Origin: an uncultured virus (IMG/VR IMGVR_UViG_3300012920_000027)
Lineage: Duplodnaviria > Heunggongvirae > Uroviricota > Caudoviricetes
Direction: 5' to 3' (one strand)
Virus record (IMG/VR): IMGVR_UViG_3300012920_000027
DNA: 20,000 bases
The position numbers and the translations under genes were made by a program. Positions 3,714 to 19,996 of the stretch are shown piece after piece. The notes beneath the pieces are model-generated. The model saw only the letters and a program-made list of their open reading frames with translations, ran no database searches and had not been told where the DNA came from. Position 1 is the stretch's first letter; each line of letters starts with the position of its first letter.

Positions 3714-3721
3714 GAGCGGTT

Positions 3722-3994: not shown

Positions 3995-4001
3995 GAGCGG
4001 T

Positions 4002-4385: not shown

Positions 4386-4401
4386 GAGCGGTAGTGAGGT
4401 T

Positions 4402-4839: not shown

Positions 4840-4846
4840 GAGCGGT

Positions 4847-5137
4847 TCATGCGTCCTCGTAGACGCAATTGTCCATGTTTCCGGACTGATACTCTTCAAT
4901 CAGAAGGAATGTAGCTTCGTACAAAACCGTGTGGTCCATCATTTCCCAACACATTTCATTCATTTGAATGATGTTCTTGGCGAGCTTGTTCGGCAAGCTC
5001 TGTGTGATTTCCAGCAGTTGATTGTACCATTCGGGGTCTCTTTCTTTGATTGGGTCAACTTCGTAGCCGTTGAAGACAAACTGCCTCGGCTTCTGTGTGA
5101 ATTCGTTAGCTGTGTCAAGCCGTTTATTCATGGTCAT
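4847..5137 (-). CDS. Hypothetical protein, 96 aa
   Basis: Motif start; its stop abuts the next motif. Confidence 0.8.
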   Translation of the reverse strand: MTMNKRLDTANEFTQKPRQFVFNGYEVDPIKERDPEWYNQLLEITQSLPNKLAKNIIQMNEMCWEMMDHTVLYEATFLLIEEYQSGNMDNCVYEDA

Positions 5138-5144
5138 GAGCGGT

Positions 5145-5345
5145 TCAGGGCTTTCGTACCTCGGTGACGGCGTGGACGATTTCAATGTCCATCTCCCAGC
5201 CACAGTTGGAGCATGTGTAGGTGTAGGTGGTTGCATCACCACCCTCCTGCTCTAGCGTTCCTTCTGCTTGGCAATGTGGGCATTGTCCGCCCCATAGTTC
5301 TCCGGGGGCGAGAGTGTCTCCTTCTTCGTAAGAATGTCGGGTCAT
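5145..5345 (-). CDS. Zn-ribbon protein, 66 aa
   Basis: CPHC...CSNC; motif start. Confidence 0.8.
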   Translation of the reverse strand: MTRHSYEEGDTLAPGELWGGQCPHCQAEGTLEQEGGDATTYTYTCSNCGWEMDIEIVHAVTEVRKP

Positions 5346-5352
5346 GAGCGGT

Positions 5353-5658
5353 TCATCGGCGTTGGACAAAGTCCATCGTCGATTGCCAATACGAGATGAC
5401 TCCCTCTGGCCTCTCGGCCCATTCCTGTTCGGAAGGTGCTTCAATCATGTCGTAGCGCCAGTCCCAGAAAAGTTCGAGGTCAAAGTCCCCACCAAGTTTG
5501 GGTGGCCGTGCGATCTCCCAAAGGTTCACATCCAAGAACCCAGGGATTGTTTTCTCCCAGTATTCCTTCGGACTTAGCGGTGTATCAACCAAGTAAGGTT
5601 CGTTTTGGTCCCCATCTCCTGTCGTTTCAACGATGTAAAATCGCGATTCGGTGTTCAT
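5353..5658 (-). CDS. Hypothetical protein, 101 aa
   Basis: Motif ATG at 5658 (MNTESRFY...). Confidence 0.8.
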   Translation of the reverse strand: MNTESRFYIVETTGDGDQNEPYLVDTPLSPKEYWEKTIPGFLDVNLWEIARPPKLGGDFDLELFWDWRYDMIEAPSEQEWAERPEGVISYWQSTMDFVQRR

Positions 5659-5666
5659 GAGCGGTC

Positions 5667-6764
5667 TCAGAGACGGCGTCGGACAGCGTCCCTCAGGGCT
5701 GTGAGCCTCTGCAGGTATTCGTCCAAGTCCGAAAGGGTCTCTTCGTAGGCGTCCACGATTTGCTCGATCTTGCGTTCGACCTGCTTCTCCTTCACAAAGA
5801 TGGAAGTCATGGTCTTTGGATCGTTGTCGTGGACAACAGGGACTGGCCCCGAGTAGCCGCCTCGCTTGTTCTTGCGTAGAGGCTTGATGGTTCTCCCATC
5901 CGTGTCTACCATTGGAGGCTCCACAGGGGGTTCCAGTACATGTTCTGTTTCGACCTGGTCCGACCATCGCAAATCAAGCGTTGCGGAGGTGTCGAGTTGT
6001 TCGTCCGTCACAGGTTCGGGCTCTGCCTCTGGCTCAGGCACCACGGGGGGTTCTGGCTCAGGGATTTCAACCGATGGAGATTCCGTTTCAATCACCGGCT
6101 CTGGCTCAAGTTCCACTTCGGGAACAGGCTCAGGCTCTTGCGTTGGTTCTTCCACGGGCTCCGGCTCGGTTTCCGGCTCGGTTTCTGGGTCCTCAGGGTA
6201 GAGGATGTCCAGAGATTTCTTGACGGCTTCAGCCTCTTCAGGGGTAAGGTCCTCTTCGGATTCCTCCCAAAAGTCGTCGGCTTCTTCCTCTTCCTCGTCG
6301 TCTTCTTCCTCAAGGAGGGACGCGAGGTCACCTGGTTCCTCAAGCTCATGTCCGAGTAGCTCTTTCATGGCGAGGATCGGGTCTTGGTCGTTCTGAAGTG
6401 CTTGAGTCGCTATATCCCACAGTTCTTCGCCCCGAAGGCGCTCTTCTGCGGTCAAATCGGCCATGAACTCGGTCACGGTATCGATGAGTTCGGGTTCAGG
6501 ATCAGTGTCCTTTTCCGGAGTCTCTGTTCGGTCGTAATAGCTCACGAGGCGTTCGTTGAGGACGCGGGCCATCTCAATCATTCGAGAAGTCCCTGCGGGG
6601 AATTCGTCAAACGCGCCTTCTGCGACAGCGTCTTCAAGCACAATTTTTGCGAGCTTACGCTTCTTGCGAATGCGTCTCTTCAGTTCTTCATCTGCTTCAG
6701 CCTCCTCTCGCGAATTCATTCGTTCAAGGATGCTGTCGATGTCTTGCATCATTTCTGCTTGCAT
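5667..6764 (-). CDS. Very acidic protein with (EP)n low-complexity linker and C-terminal coiled coil, 365 aa
   Basis: Motif start MQAEMM; EEEDDEEEEE and EPEPEP tracts. Confidence 0.88.
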   Translation of the reverse strand: MQAEMMQDIDSILERMNSREEAEADEELKRRIRKKRKLAKIVLEDAVAEGAFDEFPAGTSRMIEMARVLNERLVSYYDRTETPEKDTDPEPELIDTVTEFMADLTAEERLRGEELWDIATQALQNDQDPILAMKELLGHELEEPGDLASLLEEEDDEEEEEADDFWEESEEDLTPEEAEAVKKSLDILYPEDPETEPETEPEPVEEPTQEPEPVPEVELEPEPVIETESPSVEIPEPEPPVVPEPEAEPEPVTDEQLDTSATLDLRWSDQVETEHVLEPPVEPPMVDTDGRTIKPLRKNKRGGYSGPVPVVHDNDPKTMTSIFVKEKQVERKIEQIVDAYEETLSDLDEYLQRLTALRDAVRRRL

Positions 6765-6771
6765 GAGCGGT

Positions 6772-7044
6772 TCATAGGTCGTAGAGACCTGATTCACGGA
6801 TGAGTTTCGCAGCCTTGCCGGCGTTCGGCCCGATGTAATTCGGGTTCACATCCGTTGATTCAAGTGCAGCGACAATCAATCCGAGGATGATGTTTTGGTG
6901 CTTCAGTAGCGTGAGCTTCTGTCGAGTCAAGGCGATCTCAAGAGGCTTCGTGTCCTCTTGGTTTTCTTGGGATTGCTCGGCTGCTCGATTTGTTTCCTCA
7001 AGCACTTGTTTTGCAGTTTGGATCCATTGTGGTTCAGTTTGCAT
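6772..7044 (-). CDS. Hypothetical protein, 90 aa
   Basis: Motif start MQTEPQW. Confidence 0.8.
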   Translation of the reverse strand: MQTEPQWIQTAKQVLEETNRAAEQSQENQEDTKPLEIALTRQKLTLLKHQNIILGLIVAALESTDVNPNYIGPNAGKAAKLIRESGLYDL

Positions 7045-7051
7045 GAGCGGT

Positions 7052-7525
7052 TCAGTCGACGCGAATCGCGCCGAGTTCGTCGTCCCAGTAGGAACCAATC
7101 ACCTTCACCTCGATGTCCTCGATTTTGAAGTGCTTCAGGTTCTCCTGGACACAATGGACGCCATAGACGGCCATGTTGATGTTGATTGAGACTCTCCAGA
7201 GCTTGTCCCTGTAAAGGGTGATGTACTCGTAGGACTCGTGAATTGAGTCCTTGACTGGAGGAAAGCGATCTGTGCTGGTGAAAGCAAGAACCTGCCCATC
7301 AATCGTGTGATCTTCCCAAGCATTCCATGTGTTGTACAGGACGAGGAACTTCTCCTCATCAATGTCGTCATGGCTCGAGAATGTCCACGGTATGAGTTCA
7401 TCGTGTTCATGTCCTTCCCAGCTCCATTCGCCAGTCTCTGGATCTCCATCGTCACCCAATTCGCCGGTGCGAGGTGGGTAAAATTGGTTCAGCAGTTCAG
7501 TTTCCTTTTCGTTGAATCTGGTCAT
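7052..7525 (-). CDS. Hypothetical acidic protein, 157 aa
   Basis: Motif start; tiles with neighbours. Confidence 0.85.
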   Translation of the reverse strand: MTRFNEKETELLNQFYPPRTGELGDDGDPETGEWSWEGHEHDELIPWTFSSHDDIDEEKFLVLYNTWNAWEDHTIDGQVLAFTSTDRFPPVKDSIHESYEYITLYRDKLWRVSININMAVYGVHCVQENLKHFKIEDIEVKVIGSYWDDELGAIRVD

Positions 7526-7534
7526 GAGCGGTAC

Positions 7535-7771
7535 TCAGAATCCGTTCGTGACTCCATAGTCGTGCAGGATTTCGAATATGGCTTTCAAAGCCATGACTTC
7601 GACGGATTTGATGTTTTTTCGATTCATTCTCTCGAGGGTACCACCACAGGTGATGTCGTACCAAGAAAGAACTCGGAAAAGTTGTCGAGTCAAGGCTGGT
7701 CCATCAGGACCATCCCATGGACCGGTGTTTTCCTCCAACCAATCGTCGAGTTGAGCGTGTAGTGCTTTCAT
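7535..7771 (-). CDS. Hypothetical protein, 78 aa
   Basis: Motif start MKALHAQ. Confidence 0.8.
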   Translation of the reverse strand: MKALHAQLDDWLEENTGPWDGPDGPALTRQLFRVLSWYDITCGGTLERMNRKNIKSVEVMALKAIFEILHDYGVTNGF

Positions 7772-7785
7772 GAGCGGTTCCTGTA

Positions 7786-8235
7786 TCATTCTGCACACCA
7801 GGTTGCGTCGGCAGGCCATTGATGGTAGATGTAATCTTCATTCAATTCGCCGGAATCAAGGAACTTAGGGCCGTGGTACGATGCCGATGCGTGGTACGCA
7901 TGGGGCTCGACATCGACCAGCTCAAGGGTGAGGGCGACGATCAGTTCCTTGAACATTTGATCGGTCATCGTCGTACGCCCACCGATGTGGAGGTTGTCGT
8001 CTTCTCCTTTCCAGTCGTAAATGGTGAATTGCTGACCACGGTAACGGCCCCAGAAGTTCACGGATGACTTGTACCCATCGTAAATCGGGTATTGTCCAGA
8101 TACCGTGATCAATCGGGCCACCGTTTCAGCGAAGGAGTAGGGAAGTGGTTGCCACAACCCTACCCGGCTCGTGCCAGTCATTTCGCCAGCACGCCATTCA
8201 ATTTCGGTGTCCACGCGGATGTTCTTTGTTGTCAT
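7786..8235 (-). CDS. Hypothetical protein, 149 aa, with phage-type FTIYDWK...HIGG signature
   Basis: Motif start; DGYK...W...FTIYDWK...LHIGG resembles a phage hypothetical family (from memory). Confidence 0.8.
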   Translation of the reverse strand: MTTKNIRVDTEIEWRAGEMTGTSRVGLWQPLPYSFAETVARLITVSGQYPIYDGYKSSVNFWGRYRGQQFTIYDWKGEDDNLHIGGRTTMTDQMFKELIVALTLELVDVEPHAYHASASYHGPKFLDSGELNEDYIYHQWPADATWCAE

Positions 8236-8243
8236 GAGCGGTT

Positions 8244-8480
8244 TCAGAACTCGTTCGTCTTCCCTGTCTTCAGCAAGGACACGACCATTCGGTTCAGGGC
8301 AATCATGCGTTTGTACAAGTGCTCGTTTTCGATGTCTTCGAAATAGCTCATCAGATCCTCATATTCACTCATGCTCCATGTGTGTTCAAGAACTAAGCGT
8401 TCAACAGTTTCAACATCGGTCGCAGGTGCAGTATTCGGAAAGGTGGCTTCAAGCATTTGGCTTACCCAATCTTCGTTCAT
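8244..8480 (-). CDS. Hypothetical protein, 78 aa
   Basis: Motif start MNEDW. Confidence 0.8.
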   Translation of the reverse strand: MNEDWVSQMLEATFPNTAPATDVETVERLVLEHTWSMSEYEDLMSYFEDIENEHLYKRMIALNRMVVSLLKTGKTNEF

Positions 8481-8497
8481 GAGCGGTGAGGCTTGTT

Positions 8498-8716
8498 TCA
8501 TCCCTGGAGAACGGACATGCCTGTTGCCAGGACATTCTCATAGGTTCCAGCCATCATCTCGTTCACAACGACCTGTGTATCAGCGTAGGACCATCCATTG
8601 CGGTTCAACTGGCGCTGCACATAGCCAATCACTGCGAAGGCGTTTCCATCAACACCAATGAGGGTGCCTGGTGCCTTGCCGTTCTTCTCAATCAGTTCAA
8701 TGATTTGCGGGTTCAT
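8498..8716 (-). CDS. Small phage/MGE-type hypothetical protein with LxGxDGNAF motif, 72 aa
   Basis: LIGVDGNAFAVIG...GW...EMMAGTYENVL pattern; ACCACTC-ATG start. Confidence 0.8.
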   Translation of the reverse strand: MNPQIIELIEKNGKAPGTLIGVDGNAFAVIGYVQRQLNRNGWSYADTQVVVNEMMAGTYENVLATGMSVLQG

Positions 8717-8855
8717 GAGTGGTGAGGCCTAGTTCTCTTGCTGCCAATTCAATGGCAACCTCAAGGGGGATTTTGTTACCTCCCTTGGCGCGATAGTTGT
8801 AGGCCATGTAGATTTTCACGGTTCTTTGAGAGTGTTCTTGATTCAAAATATCCAT
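8697..8855 (-). CDS. Small hypothetical protein, 52 aa (MDILNQEHSQRTVKIYMAYNYRAKGG...), not in the ORF track
   Basis: Motif ATG at 8855; hand-translated to TGA at 8697-8699; overlaps the next gene by 20 nt. Confidence 0.65.
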   Translation of the reverse strand: MDILNQEHSQRTVKIYMAYNYRAKGGNKIPLEVAIELAARELGLTTHEPANH

Positions 8856-8879
8856 GAGCGGTTCACCTGAGTTTCGTGG

Positions 8880-9470
8880 TTACGAGTGTTTCCCGTCATT
8901 CACGGTCGCTTCTCTGGTACCGTTCTTCCATTTGAACTCACTCGTGAGATGCTTCAGGTTGTGTTTGATGTGCCACATTTCATCCTCTGTCCAATCGGAG
9001 CGAATGCGGAGCTTGGCTGCGATTCTTGGCATTGTTGAGGAAATGAGGTACTCCATTGTGTTCGCGTAACTGGTTCGATCCGAGCCCGGAACTGCAGTTG
9101 GTCCATGCCATGTGGCTGCCATGCCTGCGCTGAGAAGTTCGACCTTTGTAGGCGGGTCGAGGGTCAATCCAACCCGTATTCGGTTGATCAACTCCTTGTA
9201 GTGGCTCCTGAGAGCCTCGTGGTTCTTCGACAGGTCATTGGGCATGCCTCCATCCACGCCACCTTTCGTGAGGCGTAGAATGGACACGGGAGCTTCCTTC
9301 AAGCGTTTGTAGGCGTCAGAGGATTTCCTCTGCCGGTTCATTTCAGCGTCAAGCATGGTCCATGCCAGTTCAATCTTCTCCATTGTTTCGGCGAAGCTGT
9401 TCAGAGCTGGAAAATACTGGGCGAGGAGTTCAGTCTTGAGGTCCTCTTGGATTTGTTCCAATAGTTGCAT
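8880..9470 (-). CDS. Hypothetical protein, 196 aa
   Basis: Motif start MQLLEQ. Confidence 0.85.
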   Translation of the reverse strand: MQLLEQIQEDLKTELLAQYFPALNSFAETMEKIELAWTMLDAEMNRQRKSSDAYKRLKEAPVSILRLTKGGVDGGMPNDLSKNHEALRSHYKELINRIRVGLTLDPPTKVELLSAGMAATWHGPTAVPGSDRTSYANTMEYLISSTMPRIAAKLRIRSDWTEDEMWHIKHNLKHLTSEFKWKNGTREATVNDGKHS

Positions 9471-9477
9471 GAGCGGT

Positions 9478-9621
9478 TCAAGAGTGGCTACTTGGGGATG
9501 ATGAACCTGTGGCATTTTCAAATCCCATATCGCAGCATTCGCCGCTGCAGTAGCTTCCGTGCCAGGTATCGAAAGGTAGCCTCTTCATGTGTTCACCACA
9601 CATGTTGCATTCTTCAGTCAT
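9478..9621 (-). CDS. Cys-rich metal-binding mini-protein (TRASH/FCS-like), 47 aa, not in the ORF track
   Basis: MTEECNMCGEH...YCSGECC; motif start; TGA abuts the next motif. Confidence 0.75.
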   Translation of the reverse strand: MTEECNMCGEHMKRLPFDTWHGSYCSGECCDMGFENATGSSSPSSHS

Positions 9622-9629
9622 GAGCGGTT

Positions 9630-10088
9630 TCAGCATTCAACTACATCGTCGTAGTCGATGCCTGCTTCTTCGAGAACGGCCCCCTCACAAGCATCCCACC
9701 AATCGCAGGCGACCTTCTGAGCGAAGCGTGCGTCTTCGACGAGCCAATGCGTGTAAATCTCCGGTCGGTCATCCCGGCTACGGGATCCTGGACGGGGGTC
9801 ATTCTTGGGGTAACCAATCAGAAAGAACAGGGATTTGTCCTCGGGTATCAACGCTTGCTGTTCTGAAGTGAGATCCTCATATGCGGGGTCCCCAAGTAGG
9901 TCTTCCTTGGAACCAAAGGTGTAGCCATCAAAGTGGGTGATTTCACCTAGGTACATGCGGAAACCTCGCGTGTTGTCTCCTTGAAACCAGCCGTCAAGGC
10001 TGTCGTCGTATTTGCCATCAGGGCAACGAGCATTCAAGCAGTCTGCGATTCGATCAGCGGTGCGGTCGTTGAGTTCGTCTTTGTTCAT
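9630..10088 (-). CDS. Hypothetical acidic protein, 152 aa
   Basis: Motif start. Confidence 0.85.
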   Translation of the reverse strand: MNKDELNDRTADRIADCLNARCPDGKYDDSLDGWFQGDNTRGFRMYLGEITHFDGYTFGSKEDLLGDPAYEDLTSEQQALIPEDKSLFFLIGYPKNDPRPGSRSRDDRPEIYTHWLVEDARFAQKVACDWWDACEGAVLEEAGIDYDDVVEC

Positions 10089-10113
10089 GAGCGGTGCAAG
10101 ATGGCGTTTGCCG

Positions 10114-10153
10114 AAAAACGAACCCAGCCGGCGTTCCAGCTGGGTTGATTTTT
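10114..10153 (-). terminator. Intrinsic-terminator-like hairpin flanked by A5 and T5
   Basis: Minus strand AAAAATC-AACCCAGCTGG-AACG-CCGGCTGGGTT-CGTTTTT. Confidence 0.6.
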
Positions 10154-10166
10154 GGTGTGAGCGGCC

Positions 10167-10355
10167 TCAGAAAATCGCATCCTTGCGAACGAACCCGTGG
10201 TCGCAGCGGTTACATTCCGCTGCATCGAGCTCATCGGGCTCCTGTTCGCCAGGTGCAATCATTGGGTCATCGTGATTGTGGATCGTGATATTGCTCGTTC
10301 CACACTTTGGGCATCGGAGCCGTGGAGGCTCGACATGCATCAAAATCAAGTTCAT
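10167..10355 (-). CDS. Zn-ribbon protein, 62 aa
   Basis: CPKCG...CNRCDH; motif start. Confidence 0.8.
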   Translation of the reverse strand: MNLILMHVEPPRLRCPKCGTSNITIHNHDDPMIAPGEQEPDELDAAECNRCDHGFVRKDAIF

Positions 10356-10362
10356 GAGCGGT

Positions 10363-10593
10363 TCAGTAGTCCGGAGAGTCACGAAGACCCAGGAACCATT
10401 CAAGCGTCGCCTCCACGCCACGGAGGGCGTTGTAGTTGCGAACTGCAGAGCGGAATCTGGGAAGCCTCATCGCCTCCGAGCGTTTGTAGTGACTGTACTC
10501 GTCAAGGACGCCCTTCCATCGAACAAGTCTCTGGCGGACATCGTCCAAGTGTTTGAGCACCTCCTCGCGGGATTTCATAGAATGAGTCAACAT
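10363..10593 (-). CDS. Hypothetical protein, 76 aa
   Basis: Motif start MLTHSMK. Confidence 0.8.
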   Translation of the reverse strand: MLTHSMKSREEVLKHLDDVRQRLVRWKGVLDEYSHYKRSEAMRLPRFRSAVRNYNALRGVEATLEWFLGLRDSPDY

Positions 10594-10616
10594 GAGCGGT
10601 TGTTGCGCCGAAGCGC

Positions 10617-11072
10617 TCAGTCCAAGAACTCTTCTCTGGGATCGTCTTCCCATCGCTCCCTCATCCGGGTGATGCCGGCAAGGGGAACGCCATGGGTGTT
10701 GCGTTCTGCAAGAAGCTCATCGGTGTGTTCAGGACGGTTGAAATTCAAAACGGTGATTTCGTAGTCGAACATTTCAGCGATAAGGATGTAGTTCTTGTAT
10801 TCCCACATAACGGTGTTCGTGTTGTCAAGGACAACAGAACGACCTTGGCGAATGGCCTTGATCCATTTCTCGAGGCACCATTGGTGCGCTTCAGAGAGCT
10901 TGTAGGGGTTGAAGTCGTATTCGCCCTCGTCGTTGATGAAGAAATCATCAGCCGAGCAGATAATGAGCGAAGGTTCCACCTCCTTGAATTGGTTCAAGAC
11001 ATGAGACTTTCCTGAGCCAGGGAGGCCTCTGCCAATGAATGCGTGTTTCTTGATGTCGTTGTAGGTTTTCAT
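10617..11072 (-). CDS. P-loop kinase, AAA_33 / N4BP2-like (polynucleotide-kinase-like), 151 aa
   Basis: GRGLPGSGKS Walker A, ICSADDFF, VVLDNTN, RNTHGVP. Confidence 0.88.
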   Translation of the reverse strand: MKTYNDIKKHAFIGRGLPGSGKSHVLNQFKEVEPSLIICSADDFFINDEGEYDFNPYKLSEAHQWCLEKWIKAIRQGRSVVLDNTNTVMWEYKNYILIAEMFDYEITVLNFNRPEHTDELLAERNTHGVPLAGITRMRERWEDDPREEFLD

Positions 11073-11470
11073 GAGCGGATTTTGTCTTTGAATTCGATTC
11101 TCATGCTGCAGTGGGAGCCTTGCCTGTACTTCTCAAAAAATTCGTACTGAGGCATTTTTCCCTGCCAGGCATTGTCGAAAACAATGATGCTGAATTGTAG
11201 AGGTCGATCGTCACAACTGTCGTTTTGAAAGTAGTAGGCTTCTTTATCTCCAGGAGTCCCAACGAAGGGTATCTCGTAGATGCGAGCCTCATCATTGTTG
11301 GTGATGTCGAAGAGATTGTGTTCTTCGAGTTCTGCTCTCCTTTCGGCGTTCAGTTCTTCCAACGAATCAGCGTATTTGTCCGCTTCTTCGATGGTTTAGA
11401 AGAACTCCCGATCAAAACAAGTCATGGGCCAGTCGGCGTCTACATTGCATGCCATGTAAATGGTGTTCAT
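11069..11470 (-). pseudogene. 133-codon gene interrupted by an in-frame TAA at codon 25
   Basis: Motif ATG at 11470 reads MNTIYMACNVDADWPMTCFDREFF*TIEEADKYADSLEELNAERR..., in frame with the track ORF 11069..11362; TAA at 11396-11398. Confidence 0.7.
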
Positions 11471-11480
11471 GAGCGGCTGT

Positions 11481-11615
11481 TCAAGCTTCGAAGTACTCCT
11501 CGTAGATGTACTCCTCAGTTTCAATGCGAATTTTCAACAGGTTCACTAGATTAGCAAGTGTCTGCATCCGTCTCTTGACGGGCCATTTTCGCACATCATC
11601 TTTAGTGTAGTCCAT
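11481..11615 (-). CDS. Small hypothetical protein, 44 aa (MDYTKDDVRKW...), not in the ORF track
   Basis: Motif start; TGA 3 nt before the next motif. Confidence 0.7.
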   Translation of the reverse strand: MDYTKDDVRKWPVKRRMQTLANLVNLLKIRIETEEYIYEEYFEA

Positions 11616-11623
11616 GAGCGGTT

Positions 11624-11902
11624 TCAAGGGAAGTCCACATCGTCATTTTCCAGCCCGTAGGCCAGCGCTGCTGACAAGTACGGAGCAAGGAGCTTTGAGC
11701 GTTTTCGTGGCGACAACCCTTTCGGGAGGTACCCTCCATGAATCTTTTTCACCCAGTTGAAAGGGTCGGCCAAGAATGCAGGGTACACAAGGGAAATCCA
11801 TTGTCCCTTTGCAGTACCGAGGAAAGAGAATTGTTCTTGTGTGACTTCTTTTCCATGGATGATCGTTGCGAATTCAAAAATTGTAGGCGGTTTTGCGTAC
11901 AT
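11624..11902 (-). CDS. Hypothetical protein, 92 aa
   Basis: Motif start. Confidence 0.8.
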   Translation of the reverse strand: MYAKPPTIFEFATIIHGKEVTQEQFSFLGTAKGQWISLVYPAFLADPFNWVKKIHGGYLPKGLSPRKRSKLLAPYLSAALAYGLENDDVDFP

Positions 11903-11918
11903 GAGCGGTTTTCAGCCC

Positions 11919-12311
11919 TCAATAAGGGCTGACCATGTACCTCTGCTCGTCGGGTATAAAGAAGTAGACCGTATTCAGGTAGCCTGATTGCAGGTCGTTC
12001 TTCCGTTGCCATTCATCGGCTTCTGCACGCTCTTGGGGCGTGAGGTCGCTTGAGAATGGGTTCTTGCCGTTGTAAGCAGGGCGGTCAAGGGTGACGATCA
12101 TGCGAGAACTGCTGCGGGAAACCTGGAGCTTACGCATGCAGAACCAGGCTTCAAGGAGTTCGTCAGGGCTCGCTTCGAGTTGCGTTGCGAGTTCCATCAG
12201 GAACTTTCGGTTCACACGCTTTGGTCGTAGTCGTACGCTCCAGTAACCTGTGAAAGTTCCCATTTTGTACCCAAAGGCTTCGATGATGTCTTGTTGACGG
12301 TTTTGTGTCAT
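11919..12311 (-). CDS. Hypothetical protein, 130 aa
   Basis: Motif start. Confidence 0.82.
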   Translation of the reverse strand: MTQNRQQDIIEAFGYKMGTFTGYWSVRLRPKRVNRKFLMELATQLEASPDELLEAWFCMRKLQVSRSSSRMIVTLDRPAYNGKNPFSSDLTPQERAEADEWQRKNDLQSGYLNTVYFFIPDEQRYMVSPY

Positions 12312-12320
12312 GAGCGGTGT

Positions 12321-12548
12321 TCAGCGGATGATCGGCACCAGTTTGAACTTGCAGCCGATCATCCACTCGTACATCAATCCCCAAACGGGGTCAGTGCGAC
12401 GGACAACCCACCATCGGGGTCCGAGAGGTTCCACCCCCTGTGAATCAAGCCACTTCATAGCGGCTTTTCGGTTCTTGAATTTGGGGGATTTGAAGCGCAC
12501 TTTCTCATTGCCTCTGTAGAGGTGTAAGGTGTAACGATGTTCAGTCAT
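12321..12548 (-). CDS. Basic hypothetical protein, 75 aa
   Basis: Motif start MTEHRY. Confidence 0.78.
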   Translation of the reverse strand: MTEHRYTLHLYRGNEKVRFKSPKFKNRKAAMKWLDSQGVEPLGPRWWVVRRTDPVWGLMYEWMIGCKFKLVPIIR

Positions 12549-12564
12549 GAGCGGTGTGGGGATT

Positions 12565-12963
12565 TCACTCCCCGAACAGGTTGAACCTGTCGCTACGGAC
12601 TCGTTTATCCTCGAAGGCCACGCCACGGCCGGATGTTTCCGGCGTTGGGACGGTGGAGACTACGGGAAAACCATACGCCTGGGCGGCGATGGCCGAGGTG
12701 ATCACCAACACTCCCTCTGGGAGGGAGGCAAGGAAGGCTAGGCCCTCCTCGAGAGGCTCCCAGCCAGTCATCTGGAAAGGAGCCCCCCGGGGGTGCTCCT
12801 TGTCGATTGGACTGGCATTGAGCCCCTTGCGGCCACCAGTTTCCAGCGGAGCTGGCTTCACCACGGTTTCATCATCAAAGACGAACGGGTGAGGGCTGGT
12901 GTTGATAACACGGGTTCCATTGCTAAGGGTCACGATTGATTCGGTAAAATCTTGGTTGTTCAT
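12565..12963 (-). CDS. Hypothetical protein, 132 aa (INxxPH motif)
   Basis: Motif start; VINTSPHP resembles phage 'NLTPH' hypotheticals (from memory). Confidence 0.82.
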   Translation of the reverse strand: MNNQDFTESIVTLSNGTRVINTSPHPFVFDDETVVKPAPLETGGRKGLNASPIDKEHPRGAPFQMTGWEPLEEGLAFLASLPEGVLVITSAIAAQAYGFPVVSTVPTPETSGRGVAFEDKRVRSDRFNLFGE

Positions 12964-12981
12964 GAGCGGTAGGTTCGAGGG

Positions 12982-13104
12982 TTAATACCCCCAGTTGCAC
13001 GCGCAGTCTTCCCAAACAGGGCCAAAGAAAGGACAATAGGTCACAATCCCGGTCCCGTCGCAAAAGGGGCATTCTGCTTGGATTTGCTCCAGTTTTGTCG
13101 TCAT
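12982..13104 (-). CDS. DnaJ-type Zn-finger mini-protein, 40 aa
   Basis: CPFCDGTG...CAC; motif start. Confidence 0.72.
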   Translation of the reverse strand: MTTKLEQIQAECPFCDGTGIVTYCPFFGPVWEDCACNWGY

Positions 13105-13117
13105 GAGCGGTTCTCGA

Positions 13118-13384
13118 TCAACAAATCGAGTTCCATGCGTCTGCGATGTCCATGGCTTCTTCGTTGGACACCGCGATTGTCTTGCCGTTTCTCGCCAAGC
13201 CAATGATTGCACCTCCAAGTGACCAGCGCTTGGCTTGATCTTGAGCGAACTTGAGGTACTTCTTGCGCTTTTGACGGTTGTTTGATTCGATCATCCGAGC
13301 GGCGTGCTCGAATGTTTCTGTGGTTCGAAGGTAGTTGATGGATCCGGTCTTGTGATTGACCTTCCATGGTAGCTTTCGAGACAT
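13118..13384 (-). CDS. Basic hypothetical protein, 88 aa
   Basis: Motif start. Confidence 0.8.
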   Translation of the reverse strand: MSRKLPWKVNHKTGSINYLRTTETFEHAARMIESNNRQKRKKYLKFAQDQAKRWSLGGAIIGLARNGKTIAVSNEEAMDIADAWNSIC

Positions 13385-13402
13385 GAGCGGTTGTTGCTTT
13401 CA

Positions 13403-14287
13403 TCACACACCGAAGGTGTCGAGAAGTTCCTTCCAGTCTGCCTTGTTGGTTTCGGCGAAGAGTCTGGTTCGGATTGCTCGGTCCAAAGACCGGAATGTGA
13501 CGGGGTCCTCTTCCGAAGCCACTTCCTTCAGGTGAGCCAACACTTCTTGTTTCATTGGCATCGACACCCTTGGGTGGATGTTCGGTAGGACCTTTTGCAT
13601 GCGTTCCAGAACTTCAGTCCCAGTTAGAACGACGGGGACAAAGAAGCTACGGTCGATTAGGGGTTGGGGCATGTCCTTTTCCTCCTTGTTGGTGATGAAC
13701 ACCACCTGTCCTTTGAACGCGAACTTCCGTGGCAGTCCATGTTGGTCTGCCCAACCGGAGTTCCAGCTGATTGTTCGTTCGGAGTAGGAGTCAAGTGCAG
13801 CCTTGCAGAGTTCCATCATGGTCTCGTTTCCCCAGATGTCCACATCGTCAAGGACAAGCACGCCGCCATCTTTGCGTTGATGCATGGCGGTGTAGAGTCC
13901 TGTGGGGGCCATGTGACCTGCGACCCAAGTGTAGCCCGTGGGGCCTTCCTTGTCTTCGACTAGGCCTGCTGCCTTGAGGATCTGCTTGACCGTGTAGGTC
14001 TTTCCAAGTCCGCCCGTTCCACAAATGATCATGGAGGGGACGAATTTCTTGACGACCATTTTGATGATCTGTTCCATCAGTTCGAATCGTTTGTTCACAG
14101 GGAGTTTGGCCATCCGCTTGGTCACGACCTCGTTTCTGGCTTTGCTCTTCTGTTGCTTCTTTCGCCGCTTTGCTGCTTCCACAGCGTCAATCACCTCCTT
14201 GTCGGGGGTGGGTTGAGGGCGATAGGTTGATTCTGGCATTGGTTGTGAATGATTTCCTCCATCGGAGGTTTTCAGTTCAGGTTGCAT
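13403..14287 (-). CDS. AAA+ ATPase of phage type, 294 aa
   Basis: Walker A GTGGLGKT, Walker B VLVLDDVD, sensor-1 VVFITN, arginine finger LIDRS. Confidence 0.9.
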   Translation of the reverse strand: MQPELKTSDGGNHSQPMPESTYRPQPTPDKEVIDAVEAAKRRKKQQKSKARNEVVTKRMAKLPVNKRFELMEQIIKMVVKKFVPSMIICGTGGLGKTYTVKQILKAAGLVEDKEGPTGYTWVAGHMAPTGLYTAMHQRKDGGVLVLDDVDIWGNETMMELCKAALDSYSERTISWNSGWADQHGLPRKFAFKGQVVFITNKEEKDMPQPLIDRSFFVPVVLTGTEVLERMQKVLPNIHPRVSMPMKQEVLAHLKEVASEEDPVTFRSLDRAIRTRLFAETNKADWKELLDTFGV

Positions 14288-14312
14288 GAGAGGCAAGATG
14301 GGGTAGAGCGAA

Positions 14313-14350
14313 CGAAAGCCCCACACCGCAGATGCGGTATGGGGCTTTCG
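14313..14350. terminator. Long near-perfect hairpin upstream of the AAA+ gene (terminator-like or processing stem)
   Basis: CGAAAGCCCCA-CACCGCA-GA-TGCGGTA-TGGGGCTTTCG. Confidence 0.5.
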
Positions 14351-14370
14351 AACACGCTTGCGTGAGAGGT

Positions 14371-14548
14371 GAGTGCAATTCAGGGTCGCTACCAGGCCTG
14401 CTACCTAGGCTGCACTAAGCCATGCCTGTGACCCTCTGCCGTGCCCGGGACACCTTTCGGGTCGCCGGATAAACAGGGGGTTGCCGTTCCAGTAGGCTCA
14501 CAATCCCTACCCCGTTCGGAGGGGTCTGAGGGAAGATGATTGGGCATT
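14371..14548 (-). ncRNA. Candidate structured RNA, copy A of a tandem pair
   Basis: Shares ATGCC/GGCAT closing stem, TGGAAC-loop hairpin and 3' GGTA(A)GCAGG...GCGA.CC block with copy B; compensatory changes between copies. Confidence 0.6.
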
Positions 14549-14578
14549 CTACCAATGGGGGACTTGTGGGTTCTCCAT
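14549..14578 (-). CDS. 9-codon ORF MENPQVPHW*
   Basis: ACCTCTC-ATG start; same length and TGG-TAG-AATGCC end as the ORF at 14791. Confidence 0.45.
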   Translation of the reverse strand: MENPQVPHW

Positions 14579-14589
14579 GAGAGGTGAGT

Positions 14590-14790
14590 GGTTTTTTCGG
14601 TTCGCCATCCTACCTGCTTACCGAAGGGACCACCATCCCATGCCTTGAGCCCCGTTTTCTAAGGGGCCGCCCGTTCCATTTGGGCGCGCATAGAGCTCGA
14701 GTGGTGGCTCGGCCCATGCGGATTACCGCAATAGCTCCGGGGGCTATCGCGGATAATCACTGCTTGGGCTGCTCAAAACGCTGTGGCATT
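14590..14790 (-). ncRNA. Candidate structured RNA, copy B of a tandem pair
   Basis: As copy A; additional stem CCGCGATAGC/GCTATTGCGG with a G-U pair. Confidence 0.6.
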
Positions 14791-14820
14791 CTACCAGCGG
14801 ATGATGTAGTTGATCTCCAT
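14791..14820 (-). CDS. 9-codon ORF MEINYIIRW*
   Basis: Exact ACCGCTC-ATG start; TGG-TAG-AATGCC end. Confidence 0.45.
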   Translation of the reverse strand: MEINYIIRW

Positions 14821-14840
14821 GAGCGGTTTGACCTCAGCGA

Positions 14841-14901
14841 GGCCACCCCGGGGCGCCGTAGCGCCCCGGGGGGCGGTGTTCAGGTCAGTGACCTGAAGGC
14901 C
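14841..14901 (-). repeat. Palindrome plus C(UACG)G hairpin element, copy 1
   Basis: CAGGTCA-N-TGACCTG followed by CCCGGGGCGC-TACG-GCGCCCCGGG, just 3' of a CDS. Confidence 0.85.
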
Positions 14902-14915
14902 AGAGCCGGTTAAGC

Positions 14916-15827
14916 TCAGACATCCACGACCACGAGGGTCGGGAAGCCGGCGTCGAGTTGCAGGTCGACGAAGTACTGCCGGATGCGGGCGTTGCAGTCA
15001 AGGGCACGCCTCCACGAGTTCCCCTGGCCAGGGAACTGTGCGACCGGGAATCCACGCACGCCCGAATCGACGAGCGTTTGGTGTGCGTCGTTGTCGGCCG
15101 TGTTGGGCGTGGTTCCTCGTCCGGTGAGGAGGAAACCGGGGTTGATGCCGTTTCCATCGCTGCGTCGCAGGGACATCTTCCGGTTGTCGCCGTTGATGTC
15201 TGCGATGATCTGGATGAATCCGTGCTGGGCCCGGCTGCGCTTGTTGTCCTTGCGCTTCTCCTGTCCCGCCTTGGTGTACGGGATGCTGCGGAGGCGAAGG
15301 GCTGCGTTGACCAGCAGGCAGTAGCCGTTGACCAGGACCTTGTCGCGGGAACTCGAGAGTTGCCACTTGTTCAGTCCGTTGTAGTCGGGAGTAGGCCAAT
15401 GAGTGAGGCCTTTGCTGTCCCAACCGTCCTCAGGTGCCGGCAACATCTCAACGAAGATGGCGTGATCCATGTCGGCCATTTCGGTGGTGTAGCGGATTTT
15501 GAGCATTCCTGCCTCCTTGAGGGGCGTGAGGGCGCTGACGATTGCATCAATGTCGGCCTGAGTTTTGATGGCGTCGTTGATGGTTTTTCCGTCTGCGTCT
15601 GTGTGCTTCACGAGGAAGAGAGGATTGTCGTCCTTGCTCATTTCCATGTAGGCGAAGCGGGTGCCACTGGCAGTCTTGAACTGCGGGTGGGGCTTGCCTT
15701 TCGTGAAGACCGTCTCGACGGTGACGCCGTTCAGGTGCTCCTCTGCCGTGTGGATCGCTTGCGCGAAGTCCTCCACGGTGTAGGTCAGGTTGTTGGTCTG
15801 GTTTTCGGGGTATGCTGCGGTTTGCAT
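14916..15827 (-). CDS. Hypothetical protein, 303 aa, strongly codon-biased and possibly highly expressed
   Basis: ACCACTC-ATG start (MQTAAYP); C/G-ending codons; stop-free antisense frame. Confidence 0.88.
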   Translation of the reverse strand: MQTAAYPENQTNNLTYTVEDFAQAIHTAEEHLNGVTVETVFTKGKPHPQFKTASGTRFAYMEMSKDDNPLFLVKHTDADGKTINDAIKTQADIDAIVSALTPLKEAGMLKIRYTTEMADMDHAIFVEMLPAPEDGWDSKGLTHWPTPDYNGLNKWQLSSSRDKVLVNGYCLLVNAALRLRSIPYTKAGQEKRKDNKRSRAQHGFIQIIADINGDNRKMSLRRSDGNGINPGFLLTGRGTTPNTADNDAHQTLVDSGVRGFPVAQFPGQGNSWRRALDCNARIRQYFVDLQLDAGFPTLVVVDV

Positions 15828-15834
15828 GAGTGGT

Positions 15835-16116
15835 GTGTGTGGGCGGTCCATTTGCTATCCGGCGTTCTGTCAAACCTTGCGCGGTTTGTCCCCTCGCCCT
15901 GCCGGGGTCATAGGGGCTTCCAGCAATTCCCCCGGCTTGATGTGAGTACCCCCTCTCGAGGGCAGAGCACACCGTTCCAGGCAGAAAAGCGTTGTTTGGG
16001 CTCTTTCTCGGGTTGCAATCCCACCACTTTCGTGGTGAAGGAGTTCAATCGGCCGAGTTTGTCCTGCTCAGAGTCCTTCGAGTGGAGAAGGAGGCAGGCT
16101 ATCAGTCCCTTACGGG
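15835..16116 (-). ncRNA. Candidate ~280-nt structured RNA between two motif copies
   Basis: Begins after ACCGCTC-ACA; CCC-GTAA-GGG, CACCAC-GAAA-GTGGTG, GCCGGGG/CCCCGGC stem, TGGAAC loop. Confidence 0.5.
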
Positions 16117-16144
16117 TGTGAGCGGTTCATCGGACAAGTCCGAA

Positions 16145-16447
16145 TCAGCGGTATGCGCCCATTGCCAGTCCAGGCAGGCTCGAGGCCTCGCCCTTCTGCG
16201 ACTTGATACGCAGGCTCGACAGGATGCTGTGAAGCACCTTGTTACCATCGAAGCTGATGTTGCCATCGGCTTGGATCTCCGACTCGAAGTCGAAGCAGCC
16301 AGTGTCTGCGAGGTCCTTCTCGCAGAGCGAGCAAAGGAATTCGGGAGCACGGGCAATGGTCAGAACCTTGCGATGTCCCACCCCCTGGAACTCGGGGGCG
16401 TTCAAATCGGCTTGGCAAATGGCGCAGGTACAAATTTTGGTTTGCAT
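16145..16447 (-). CDS. Zn-finger protein, 100 aa
   Basis: CTCAIC...CSLC; GCCGCTC-ATG start. Confidence 0.8.
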   Translation of the reverse strand: MQTKICTCAICQADLNAPEFQGVGHRKVLTIARAPEFLCSLCEKDLADTGCFDFESEIQADGNISFDGNKVLHSILSSLRIKSQKGEASSLPGLAMGAYR

Positions 16448-16460
16448 GAGCGGCTTACAT

Positions 16461-16526
16461 GACCACCCTGGGCCGCCGTAGCGACCCAGGGGGTGTTGTA
16501 CAGGTCAATGACCTGGGACGAAGGTC
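16461..16526 (-). repeat. Palindrome plus C(UACG)G hairpin element, copy 2
   Basis: GACC...CAGGTCATTGACCTG-TACAACACC-CCCTGGGTCGC-TACG-GCGGCCCAGGG-TGGTC. Confidence 0.85.
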
Positions 16527-16530
16527 GAGC

Positions 16531-16890
16531 TCAAAGCTCGATGGCGCCTTCAATGGCCGAAGCCCTTGATTCCCTCTTGATTGCGCTGCGGCGGTGCCGC
16601 ACTTGGCGTTCGTTGGGGAAGGCCTCTGGGCAGTACTTGTCTACCCAGTCCTTCATCATCAGAACCGATTTCAGATGTCCAAGGCTGGTGCCAGAGACCA
16701 CTTCGTTCCCGTCCCAGTTGTCGAAGAAGCGGTGAAGCGCTTGTTCGGTGCGACTGGAGATGCGGGGTGGTGCTCGGCCACGGACCTTGTGGATCCAGCC
16801 CTCCCACGAAAGCACCCAAAGGGGCACCTTCGTATCGTCGCTGGTCAAAATCTGGTTGTCGGTTGGCATTGTTTTACGAGTGTAGAACAT
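16531..16890 (-). CDS. Basic hypothetical protein, 119 aa
   Basis: ACCTCTC-ATG start. Confidence 0.8.
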   Translation of the reverse strand: MFYTRKTMPTDNQILTSDDTKVPLWVLSWEGWIHKVRGRAPPRISSRTEQALHRFFDNWDGNEVVSGTSLGHLKSVLMMKDWVDKYCPEAFPNERQVRHRRSAIKRESRASAIEGAIEL

Positions 16891-16963
16891 GAGAGGTCTC
16901 GTCTTTCCGAAGTGTCATCCAGTTTTTGCGGTCCTGGAAGCGACCGCCGGCAACCGGTGAGAG

Positions 16964-17239
16964 TCAGAGCTCCACCATCGCCTCAAGGTTCAGCTTAGGC
17001 GCCGCCTTCTTGCGGTTGCCTTTGCTGTTCTTCTTGCGGCGGTTGGATTTGGAGGACTTCTTCGTCTGCTGTGCCTTGTGCGCTGCGATCATCTCGCTGC
17101 GAATGGCGTTCACAAGCTTCGGGTCAAAGTCCCCAGAGAAGGTGATGTTTCCGACGGTGGTGGTGTTATCCACCTCCTGTCGGGGCTTGCTCGTCTTCTT
17201 CTTGCGGTTCACGGTGACGGTGCGGGTAAAGCGGGTCAT
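16964..17239 (-). CDS. Lys/Arg-rich protein, 91 aa, putative nucleic-acid-binding
   Basis: GCCTCTC-ATG start MTRFTR; NRKKK and KKSSKSNRRKKNSKGNRKK tracts. Confidence 0.8.
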   Translation of the reverse strand: MTRFTRTVTVNRKKKTSKPRQEVDNTTTVGNITFSGDFDPKLVNAIRSEMIAAHKAQQTKKSSKSNRRKKNSKGNRKKAAPKLNLEAMVEL

Positions 17240-17416
17240 GAGAGGCACCACCCCTGCCGGGGGTTGGCCCCCCCCAGAGCAGGGGGGGCCAGTTTGACTC
17301 CGCACGGTAGAACGAGACGGAGCCGGAGGCTGCGGCGGGGTGGCGATGCGTCGGTGCGCGGGGGCCCGTTGGATGAACTGCAATCAAGCTAAGAGTGGGC
17401 TAGACTCCAGGCTGCT

Positions 17417-17887
17417 TCACGAAAGGTCCTCGGTGTAGTCCCAGCCATCGTAGTGGCTGAGGTCGTAGGAGGCGTCGTCGTCGTCGGCGTCGTCAAGGAC
17501 ATCTTCGACCTCGTCCGGGTTGCCGGTGGGACCGGCGGGGATTCCGTCGAGGGAAGTGGTACCGATGCGGTCACGGCTGTGGAGGTTTTCCTCGGCAGAC
17601 TCGAGAGACCACCCGAAGGCGGTGGCGAGTGCCATGAGGTGTTCCGGTGCGTGCGACCATCGGCCGTCGTAGACGATGTTTGCCATGTTGAGCGCTTCCA
17701 AGAGAGTGCGTTCGACTTCCATTCGGGACATGTCTCGCATGTCTGCGTAGATGTCGAAGGCAACTTCGAGTGCGTTGTCGAGGCTGGAGATGTCAGCGAA
17801 GATGCTGAGGAAGGAGGTGATCATCACCTCCAAAGCTCCAAGTGTTCGTTCGGCGGTCAGGCTGATTGGGTTGGTATGCTGTTGCAT
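17417..17887 (-). CDS. Acidic hypothetical protein, 156 aa
   Basis: ACCACTC-ATG start; D/E-rich tail. Confidence 0.85.
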   Translation of the reverse strand: MQQHTNPISLTAERTLGALEVMITSFLSIFADISSLDNALEVAFDIYADMRDMSRMEVERTLLEALNMANIVYDGRWSHAPEHLMALATAFGWSLESAEENLHSRDRIGTTSLDGIPAGPTGNPDEVEDVLDDADDDDASYDLSHYDGWDYTEDLS

Positions 17888-17921
17888 GAGTGGTTGGCGA
17901 GGGTGTTCCTTCCCTCATACC

Positions 17922-18329: not shown

Positions 18330-18401
18330 GACCCACCTGGGTCGCCGTAGCGACTCAGGGGGTGTTGTACAGGTCAGTGACCTGGAAAAGCGGCGAAGGT
18401 C
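18330..18401 (-). repeat. Palindrome plus C(UACG)G hairpin element, copy 3
   Basis: GACC...CAGGTCACTGACCTG-TACAACACC-CCCTGAGTCGC-TACG-GCGACCCAGG-TGGGTC. Confidence 0.85.
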
Positions 18402-18409
18402 ACGAAGTC

Positions 18410-19027
18410 TCAGTCTTCATCGGCATAAATGTTTGATAGGATCGTGTGGTGTTCCTCCTTGCTGCGGTGCTTGTCGAGCTCCTTTTGCAAGAAGTGTAAC
18501 TCGTGCTTCGTCATGTCGTGGAGGGTTCGCTCCTCGTCGATCTCTTGCTCGAGGTCTGCATGGTGTTCTGCAGTCTTGAATCGAGTGGCTTGAATCATCT
18601 GGATGATGACTTCCCATTGTTCGAGGTCGTATTCGATGCGGCCGAGCGGAGTCACAACCGTGACGCCAATTGGCGTGTCCTTGTTCAGAAGGTAGTCGAT
18701 GTACTGCTGGTTCTCGGTGAAGTATTCGTGTGCTTCTTCGCGCAGTTTGTCGATGAGGGCTGAAAGGCTGTTGCACTTGTCGGCGAGCTCTTCGGGGGAC
18801 TTGCCCCCTGTTTCTGCGTCCTCATGGGAAATCAGAACCTTTCGCGTGATGCGATGCTCGGTTGGTGCGGTTTCAATCCAGCGAGGTACCCAGGGTTCCT
18901 CAACAGGTAGTGGGTACCGGTGGTAGACCTTGATGATGCCATCAAAGTTCATGATCAGTCCCTCGTCGTTCCCGGTCTTGTCTTCCTCGGAGCCCGGGCT
19001 GGCTCCGTCGTGGTTGGCTTGTGCCAT
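18410..19027 (-). CDS. Hypothetical protein with C-terminal coiled coil, 205 aa
   Basis: Start MAQANH follows ACCACTC-AC-ATG; the track's longer N-terminus overlaps structured non-coding sequence. Confidence 0.8.
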   Translation of the reverse strand: MAQANHDGASPGSEEDKTGNDEGLIMNFDGIIKVYHRYPLPVEEPWVPRWIETAPTEHRITRKVLISHEDAETGGKSPEELADKCNSLSALIDKLREEAHEYFTENQQYIDYLLNKDTPIGVTVVTPLGRIEYDLEQWEVIIQMIQATRFKTAEHHADLEQEIDEERTLHDMTKHELHFLQKELDKHRSKEEHHTILSNIYADED

Positions 19028-19049
19028 GTGAGTGGTGTTTGTGATTGTG

Positions 19050-19790
19050 TGTGGTGAGAACCCGATTCCAGTCCATACTGACGAAATTCCTCGGAATGCT
19101 GATTCTGGCCTGTTTCCAGGCACGCTCGGCAACCGTAGAAGAGCGGGATCTTGACCCATAGGGCTGTAGATCCTCGTAACTCGCCTTCTGTTCAACAGTG
19201 GCCATTGCTGGCGACTGCTGCTCTTCCATTACTAGCGGCAGGAGACTGATGTTGCGTGTAAGCGGTCCAATCCCGGATTCGTGGGCTCAAGGCCCAACCA
19301 TCCTTCGTCGGAGGCTTGCGTTTGCGTATCAGTTCCTAGCACATTCAGGGGTGTCCTTCGCCGTCAAGCGGCGTCGGTAACGCTGTTTTCCTTATTTTCC
19401 CCTCTTCCCAGCACTGGAATCGTTTGGTGTAGTTCTCAATTTAGCGTACGAGCCCTGGACTACCTCATGTCCGGCGGGCTAACCCTCACTGCCCTTTCGG
19501 GTCACAGGCACATCTGCAAGGCAACCAGCCTCGGTTTTCGTCTCCATCCCGAAGGATTTCGACGGTTTCGATGTAACTGCATTGACGATCGGCGCTGATG
19601 GGCGCTCGATTGTCGAATCAGTTTGGGTCCGTTCACCGGACAGGGCTGGGGCCAGTGGCCACCAGGGGTATCCCTGTTATCCGGTGCAGAGCTCGGTGGG
19701 ATCCTCTCGAAAGAGGGTCCGCCACCCCTTATCCTCTGTCTCCAGAGCTTGGGGGGCATCCCGTGAAGGCCCGTAGGCCAACCGAGTGAG
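19050..19790 (-). ncRNA. Candidate large (~750 nt) structured non-coding RNA
   Basis: No motif-started ORF; GAAA and UUCG tetraloop hairpins read on the minus strand; long-range helix between 19055-19072 and 19413-19438. Confidence 0.6.
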
Positions 19791-19799
19791 GGCTCTTGT

Positions 19800-19996
19800 C
19801 CCTCATAGTGAGGGGCCATTGGAGCCCTAAGGCCTGCATAGTGCAGGTTGGTGAGTGGTTTATGTTGCTCGTAGTGCAACGCCACAGGAGGTACTTGAAG
19901 CGGCCTCCATGTGGCCTTCGAGCAGCAGTCCGATCCACAGCTCGCCCTGGCTTAAGGCACAGGTGCAAGTCGGTAGTATGTTCATGTTGCTCGTAG
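19800..19996. repeat. Imperfect ~45-bp direct repeats and a hairpin cluster with CACTA(T/C)G apices
   Basis: ATGTTGCTCGTAG at 19862 and 19984, each preceded by TAAGGC...GTGCA.GT.GGT. Confidence 0.6.

Follow-up and report, generated by a model that had tools for sequence, protein, structure and literature searches.

At one end of a viral contig of 75,793 bases (G000, estimated to be 59% complete), several hundred bases that code for no credible protein stand at the head of a long array of small genes. What does this stretch encode, and what might the virus use it for? We address the question in the window, by which we mean the whole 20,000-nucleotide stretch of DNA that was analysed and that forms the end of this contig. 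An earlier note on the window, made from its letters, had proposed a large non-coding RNA between positions 19050 and 19790, either of the GOLLD or ROOL type, or two adjacent RNAs, or a new class.

A structured, non-coding RNA

The region encodes a genuine structured RNA of about 800 bases on the minus strand. Judging from folding, from alignments of homologues and from one metatranscriptome contig, we place the whole RNA at 19055-19852. Its true 5' start is probably some 60 nt upstream of the limit drawn in the earlier note (19790), with a start near 19790 as the alternative. The elements that the note had read on the minus strand are all present: four tetraloop hairpins (19703-19716, 19547-19556, 19492-19501 and 19108-19121), a nested stem at 19635-19686, and both arms of a long-range helix at 19055-19438. 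The 127-aa open reading frame, which the note had not considered credible, is broken by stops or frame changes in all four homologues tested.

The comparison with shuffled sequence that the note had suggested also favours structure. For the minus strand of the region (741 nt) the folding energy is -294.1 kcal/mol; none of 20 shuffles folds as well (z = -4.35), and two homologues likewise beat their shuffles (z = -3.44 and z = -5.70); the plus strand of the same region reaches z = -3.23. When the fold is measured in windows of 200 nt, the signal is concentrated in the 5' half (z from -3 to -5), and the 3' half is unremarkable at that scale (z from -1.7 to +0.9). Folding energy alone is no proof, since two coding windows elsewhere on the minus strand (8001-8200 and 17001-17200) reach z-scores of -4.2 and -3.4. 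Covariation is the stronger evidence: across an alignment of 11 rows, 52 of the 162 predicted pairs show changes on both sides.

Homologues were reached by several routes. The array signal described below led to a complete virus of 127,570 bases (G001), which carries the RNA at 77% identity, and a viral contig of 128,049 bases that was binned in an archaeal genome (G002:C65, here the G002 contig) carries it at 71%. Another complete virus, of 128,784 bases (G077), was reached through an alignment of its thermosome, which is 53% identical; blastn detects no similarity to the RNA in this genome, but a motif scan does find the RNA there. A 19-base pattern gave 26 metagenome matches, ten of them full-length homologues and 16 not homologues. 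The number of independent lineages is nevertheless two, not many: a close family (G000, G001 and the G002 contig) and G077. Annotated phage genomes gave no match to the RNA. A first pattern scan of viral sequences returned no matches, because the pattern was too specific; a loose pattern returned 120 loci, with the G001 locus as the sole homologue, and a later one returned nine, with homologues only in G001 and G077. When more lineages were sought with TFB-like and RpoA''-like alignments, G001 and G077 were the only close relatives recovered; a scan with a single protein gave none, and an RNA model (R2) run on 141 genomes found only the G002 contig. A 45% fragment (G078) holds neither the RNA nor the array and, being a fragment, is uninformative.

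The RNA is probably transcribed. Among 24 sequencing runs that hold part of this stretch, and were chosen for that reason, 22 are recorded as RNA. Contigs lie on the RNA in all four of the runs examined; being assembled, these contigs carry neither strand, true ends nor level, and DNA carry-over is possible. The most complete view comes from a 794-nt metatranscriptome contig that covers 19062-19838 and stops about 10 bases from both predicted ends. The contigs of the four runs contain no back-joint of the kind expected for a circular RNA, which does not imply that such a form is absent. In two studies, contigs break off within the gene at 17887, 11-25 nt from its start, which hints weakly at a 5' end near that gene start.

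Thus the proposal of a large structured RNA stands: it is conserved, non-coding and probably transcribed. Of the forms that the note had considered for it, two adjacent RNAs are less likely than a single unit, because no homologue found has the 5' half without the 3' half or the reverse, and one metatranscriptome contig extends across the two. Junction details of the RNA come from alignments and unconstrained folds. GOLLD and ROOL are large, ornate RNAs with many helices and a viral location. The viral RNA resembles GOLLD, ROOL, OLE and HEARO in size and helices, and the first two in viral location as well, but it matches none of these families in Rfam at any tested threshold, nor group I or group II introns, and so the proposed identity does not hold. 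In the window, Rfam gives no match at the gathering threshold and two chance-level matches at E<=10, and the whole contig and the homologues match neither archaeal RNase P RNA (RF00373) nor any other relevant family. The linear model of RF00373, however, cannot score an RNA whose parts stand in rotated order.

The 3' half and archaeal RNase P

RNase P RNA is among the very few universal ribozymes, and descriptions of it are of a cellular gene whose parts keep a set order and whose active site has an invariant U. As judged from sequence and predicted pairing, the 3' half of the viral RNA is the catalytic domain of an RNase P RNA in circularly permuted order, which the earlier note had missed. 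From 5' to 3', the order is a closing helix, a strand of P5, an arm like P15/P16, a variable insertion, CR-IV, P2, P19, CR-V and the P1 hairpin, followed by P2, P3, CR-I, P4, P5 and again the closing helix. This is the order that results when the RNase P catalytic domain is cut open at P7 and a loop connects its natural 5' and 3' ends.

All of these parts lie on the minus strand. The closing helix (19055-19438, with inner pairs between 19422-19414 and 19071-19063) occupies the position of P7, and the permutation break is at its end. Within it are P5 (19076-19413, in which 19413-19410 pairs with 19079-19076) and the P15/P16-like arm (19347-19403), which has an A-rich internal loop and a terminal hairpin at 19373-19359 and is followed by the variable insertion of about 100 nt. 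A CR-IV-like strand and the 3' strand of P2 lie at 19220-19235, the P2 strand pairing with 19144-19137; the P19 hairpin (19194-19219) comes from fold and pair analysis, and CR-V with the 3' strand of P4 (19178-19191) from profile, descriptor and pair analysis. P1 (19146-19173), identified by descriptor and pair analysis, is closed by a hairpin where the natural ends would be. P3 (19092-19135) is long and has an internal loop, and CR-I with the 5' strand of P4 occupies 19080-19092. Around P4, the parts P1, P2, P3, P5 and CR-IV stand at their natural spacing. In all homologues CR-V comes before CR-I and P1 takes the form of a hairpin; none has the natural order, in which P1 joins the two ends.

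The best evidence for the rotated core is provided by G077. The P4 helix formed by CR-I and CR-V has seven or eight of its eight pairs in all 11 viral sequences, and in G077 it has been rewritten, with three two-sided changes, yet all eight pairs are formed. The same is true more broadly: P4, P5, P2, P1 and the P15-like arm are all rewritten in this virus with pairing kept, and its P3 is a short hairpin, as in natural archaeal RNAs. A model built without G077 ranks it first and in register when filters are off (17.8 bits, E ~0.001), with the second-best match, at 16.0 bits, due to chance; under default filters G077 is missed. In alignment A4, which contains 69 named pairs, 93.3% of the cells are paired and 20 pairs show two-sided changes; none of 500 shuffles is paired to this degree, and controls in which the structure was slid along the alignment reach 31-44%. 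These values apply to rows that are related, to a structure taken from the window's own row, and to an alignment in which G077 is partly misaligned.

For comparison we used 68 natural archaeal RNase P RNAs (55 from two locus sets, and 13 more). A strict descriptor of the rotated order had no matches in 102 Mb, but it passed only 5 of the 11 viral RNAs and 2 of 67 natural RNAs after rotation; because this made it a poor test, it was relaxed. The relaxed descriptor passes all 11 viral RNAs, 43 of the 67 natural RNAs when rotated, and none of the 67 unrotated. Its background is 17 matches in 126 Mb of shuffled genome, or about 0.02 per genome, and other loci (2.28 Mb) gave one match. Since the descriptors were written after the sequence had been seen, the background rate serves only as a guide.

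Could the likeness to RNase P be a coincidence, and the RNA simply a new class of large structured RNA? Besides the missing Rfam match, sequence profiles of natural RNase P RNAs match only CR-V, at E ~1: these nhmmer profiles, from 64 of the 68 natural RNAs (four with aberrant CR-I were excluded) and in six rotations, reach at best 2.2-2.4 bits, and shuffles up to 2.6. A model of the natural specificity domain fails as well. Such a coincidence would, however, have to account for three conserved strands, together with P1-P5 and P19 at natural spacing, all maintained by compensatory changes in two lineages that are far apart, and we regard it as very unlikely. The 3' half has, in all likelihood, an RNase P origin. 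The features shared with archaeal RNase P RNA (the CR-I, CR-IV and CR-V strands, helices P1-P5 and P19, a P4 of 8 bp, and a P15 region followed by CR-IV with no P18 in between) make the viral RNA look derived from an RNA of the RF00373 type.

Departures from RNase P

Although it shares this core, the viral RNA departs from archaeal RNase P RNA in several respects. Its parts are rotated and its P1 is closed by a loop; the P15/L15 region is remodelled; and with about 250 nt of extra 5' domains it is some 800 nt long, compared to 250-400 nt for the archaeal RNAs, and is viral. By eye, neither P6 nor the L15 loop that binds the tRNA 3' end could be identified in alignments A4 and A10, and the parts that recognise tRNA look altered from their sequence.

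The most specific departure concerns the bulged U of P4. Compared with natural RNase P RNA, the 5' strand of P4 lacks one base, so that the bulged U is missing and the helix is continuous. This is the case in all 11 viral sequences, in both lineages, whereas the U is bulged in all 60 natural RNAs that were scored. Together with the rotated order, the missing U places the viral RNA outside RF00373. In the strain of the window itself, P4 (19087-19080 and 19185-19178) carries two changes unlike all other homologues; by eye, these could break one pair or allow a shifted register with a bulged U. The U is important for natural enzymes, but its loss need not be fatal: in one study, its loss or change leaves some activity, reduced 13- to 100-fold (PMC3488217), and another reports that a change of the U in E. 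coli RNase P lowers catalysis more than 500-fold and leaves binding unaffected (PMC11221534).

The 5' half is also conserved and covarying. Its first domain, a multi-branch junction at 19692-19786 on the minus strand, has no counterpart in RNase P and is recognisable in G077. The second is the nested stem at 19635-19686, in which homologues show compensatory changes. A candidate specificity-domain module follows at 19522-19584 on the same strand, where two A-rich strands flank a variable helix; by eye it resembles CR-II, P12 and CR-III, and it sits where a rotation at P7 would place them. A model of 31 natural specificity domains (R1) gave 46 matches at E<=10, none of them at this module, and so the reading of the 5' module as a specificity domain is unproven.

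A similar combination of an RNase P-derived core and a diverged second domain is found in RNase MRP RNA. Unlike the viral RNA, RNase MRP is eukaryotic, unrotated and furnished with many protein subunits, and it keeps the bulged U; we use it as an analogy for the proposed function only. Engineered permuted RNase P RNAs tolerate new ends. In the M1GS guide ribozymes, the RNase P core has been retargeted to mRNA (PMC11143913). Permuted and M1GS RNAs differ from the viral RNA in being laboratory constructs, with a covalent guide strand, and no guide that covaries with the array signal was found in the viral RNA. The openly available literature that was searched shows no natural permuted or virus-encoded RNase P RNA, and the term 'RNase P' is absent from the main text of two virus surveys. 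Since a rotated viral version without the U escapes Rfam, similar RNAs may be widespread and overlooked. What we describe, then, is a conserved, rotated RNase P-like RNA in marine viruses whose hosts are probably archaea, and its function is possibly new.

The gene array and the possible function of the RNA

On its 5' side the RNA adjoins a promoter-like repeat unit at 19852-19893 (minus strand), which contains a GC box, a TATA-like 8-mer and the gene-head signal at 19859-19852, with a partial second copy at 19963-19996. Relatives have two to six tandem copies upstream of the RNA and, from their spacing, we infer that these are promoters. A head module of repeat family D9 (19799-19836, minus strand) also stands before other early genes, at 17911 and 18270. 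A 56-nt repeat with an internal hairpin occurs in three copies (14841-14896, 16461-16516 and 18330-18385) upstream of early genes.

On its 3' side the RNA is directly followed by signal-like words (19028-19055, minus strand) before the gene at 18410-19027; the exact signal stands there in G001 and the G002 contig. The array occupies 72-17893 of the window on the minus strand and runs on to 27.9 kb of the contig, each gene being headed by the signal directly before its ATG. The contig of G000 has 106 copies of the signal on the minus strand and none on the plus strand, so that all are on the strand of the RNA, and the gap between a stop and the next ATG is 6-10 nt in 69 of 105 cases. Signal-headed genes number 106 in G000, 93 in G001, 91 in the G002 contig and 61 in G077, and in all four the RNA and the array occur together, with the RNA at the head. 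The signal itself is ACCGCTC in G000 and ACTGACC in G077. The arrays comprise 60-110 small genes, mostly of unknown function (27.9-73.7 kb in the contig of G000).

The signal does more than precede genes. Copies without an ATG lie close behind stop codons, in three of the four arrays also 0-2 nt after the stop of the last gene, and such copies likewise adjoin the ends of the RNA in the close family, though G077 has no signal at the RNA's 5' end; the signal therefore marks boundaries, not only starts. Several G077 array genes that have no signal carry Shine-Dalgarno-like leaders. Inside reading frames the 6-mer of the signal is not depleted. At the far ends of three arrays (G001:11385, G002:C65:23872 and G000:27837), a strong GC-rich hairpin follows the signal; it may act as a terminator, or stabilise a 3' end, opposite the convergent RpoA''-like gene.

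Two kinds of pairing with the signal were considered and dropped. A hairpin of the RNA at 19452-19479 (minus strand) has an 8-nt loop (19468-19461) that does not vary within the close family and shows partial complementarity to the gene heads. In G077, however, no loop corresponds in this way to that virus's signal, and the idea of a guide was rejected; nor does any strand of the RNA pair with the signal in both lineages. Pairing with 16S rRNA is unsupported, as the complements of the two signals lie at different places and that of ACCGCTC is incomplete and present in three of six loci.

Poseidoniaceae and Thalassarchaeaceae are among the nearest named cellular matches of the thermosome that these viruses encode, which makes marine group II archaea the likely hosts. 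The viruses also have genes for an RpoA''-like protein (~830 aa) and, beside the repeats, for a TFB-like protein; G077 has one for an RpoH-like protein as well (loci L007:10951-13476, L160:8522-11011, L373:9544-12063, L162:18114-19205 and L376:3241-3537). In this way they may rebuild the host RNA polymerase. These proteins could read the signal as a promoter.

If the RNA descends from RNase P, it may simply be a working viral RNase P, which trims viral tRNAs, possibly in cis, or sustains host tRNA maturation, with the signal as a separate device: a compact promoter, a re-initiation signal or a recombination junction. A tRNA gene does lie about 120-130 nt downstream of the RNA on the same strand in G077 and the G002 contig, and catalytic domains without a specificity domain still cut (PMC5839562). 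The order of the array genes, moreover, is scrambled as for cassettes: 63 of the 114 array proteins of G000 match G001, and the two arrays are collinear mainly at the head. Yet each virus has only 0-3 detectable tRNA genes, the RNase P RNA of the likely host is normal (237 bits), and the viral RNA has no bulged U and a specificity domain that the natural model does not recognise, so that we think this explanation unlikely.

The RNA might instead be a catalytically dampened mimic, which would bind pre-tRNA or the RNase P proteins of the host and thereby delay the maturation of host tRNAs while the virus takes over. The loss of a metal-binding bulged U in both lineages would suit such a role, given that the change in E. 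coli reported in PMC11221534 hits catalysis and not binding. The RNA would, in addition, be made first, from the tandem promoter-like repeats, and a protein to bind is available, in that every one of 41 genomes from the likely host order, that of G002, contains Rpp29. The conserved core fits less well. Pop5 binds the RNase P catalytic domain, and the strands of the catalytic core are the best conserved of the viral RNA. By Pfam, however, Pop5 is found in none of these 41 genomes, and therefore protein binding explains the conserved core poorly. The rotation and the extra 5' domains would also be needless in a mimic, and we consider this reading, too, improbable. No viral Pop5 was found in G000, G001 and G077, and the host RNase P of this order seems reduced or diverged, though its RNA is normal.

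The explanation that we favour, tentatively, is that of a nuclease with a new target, which would cleave the early transcript at the array signal. A conserved core implies retained binding or catalysis, altered tRNA-contact regions imply a changed substrate, and the position beside the array together with the co-occurrence of the two points to the array as target; it is the combination of the three that favours this reading. The RNA would be the first early transcript, made from the tandem promoter-like repeats; it would fold with P4 intact and act as an endonuclease with host Rpp29 or a viral protein. Like RNase MRP, it would have abandoned tRNA for a short single-stranded sequence and would cut the long early transcript at each signal, these two steps being the least secure. 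Each gene might thereby gain a 5' end of its own, with almost no leader and no Shine-Dalgarno site. There is a precedent in RNase MRP, which cuts single strands at a weak sequence consensus (PMC3737539). Several observations weigh against the favoured reading: the missing bulged U, the poor scores of natural RNase P profiles, the finding that no strand of the RNA pairs with the signal in both lineages, the undepleted 6-mer inside reading frames, the missing signal at the RNA's 5' end in G077, and the viral transcription proteins, for which the signal could be a promoter. In its most specific form, a captured, rotated RNase P RNA without the bulged U would be a sequence-directed ribozyme that makes about 100 cuts in a 45-kb early transcript and yields leaderless messages, the signal and the enzyme having changed together between the lineages; this version is possible but doubtful.

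In the early region of phage T7, tandem promoters head a polycistronic transcript, and RNase III cuts it into single messages. In T7 the enzyme is a host protein and the sites are a few hairpins, whereas the viral array offers 60-110 unstructured 7-base sites and a candidate RNA enzyme. If cutting at the signal is true, it would represent a new mode of expression for an operon of a hundred genes and a natural counterpart of the engineered RNase P that cuts mRNA. The viral RNA also allows direct tests of how far the bulged U can be dispensed with and of how the RNase P core can be retargeted, the latter being the step thought to have produced RNase MRP.

Among the viral proteins tested, Pfam scans matched no DNA polymerase or capsid family. 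G001 (L164, L165) and G077 (L370-L372) encode multi-domain proteins of 2,000-2,900 aa, with ligase, guanylate kinase and DUF7831 among their domains. A tRNA-like gene whose anticodon arm carries a long insertion (L173:116-246 and L162:10410-10540) comes immediately after the RNA in the G002 contig; in G001 its distance downstream of the RNA is 6 kb.
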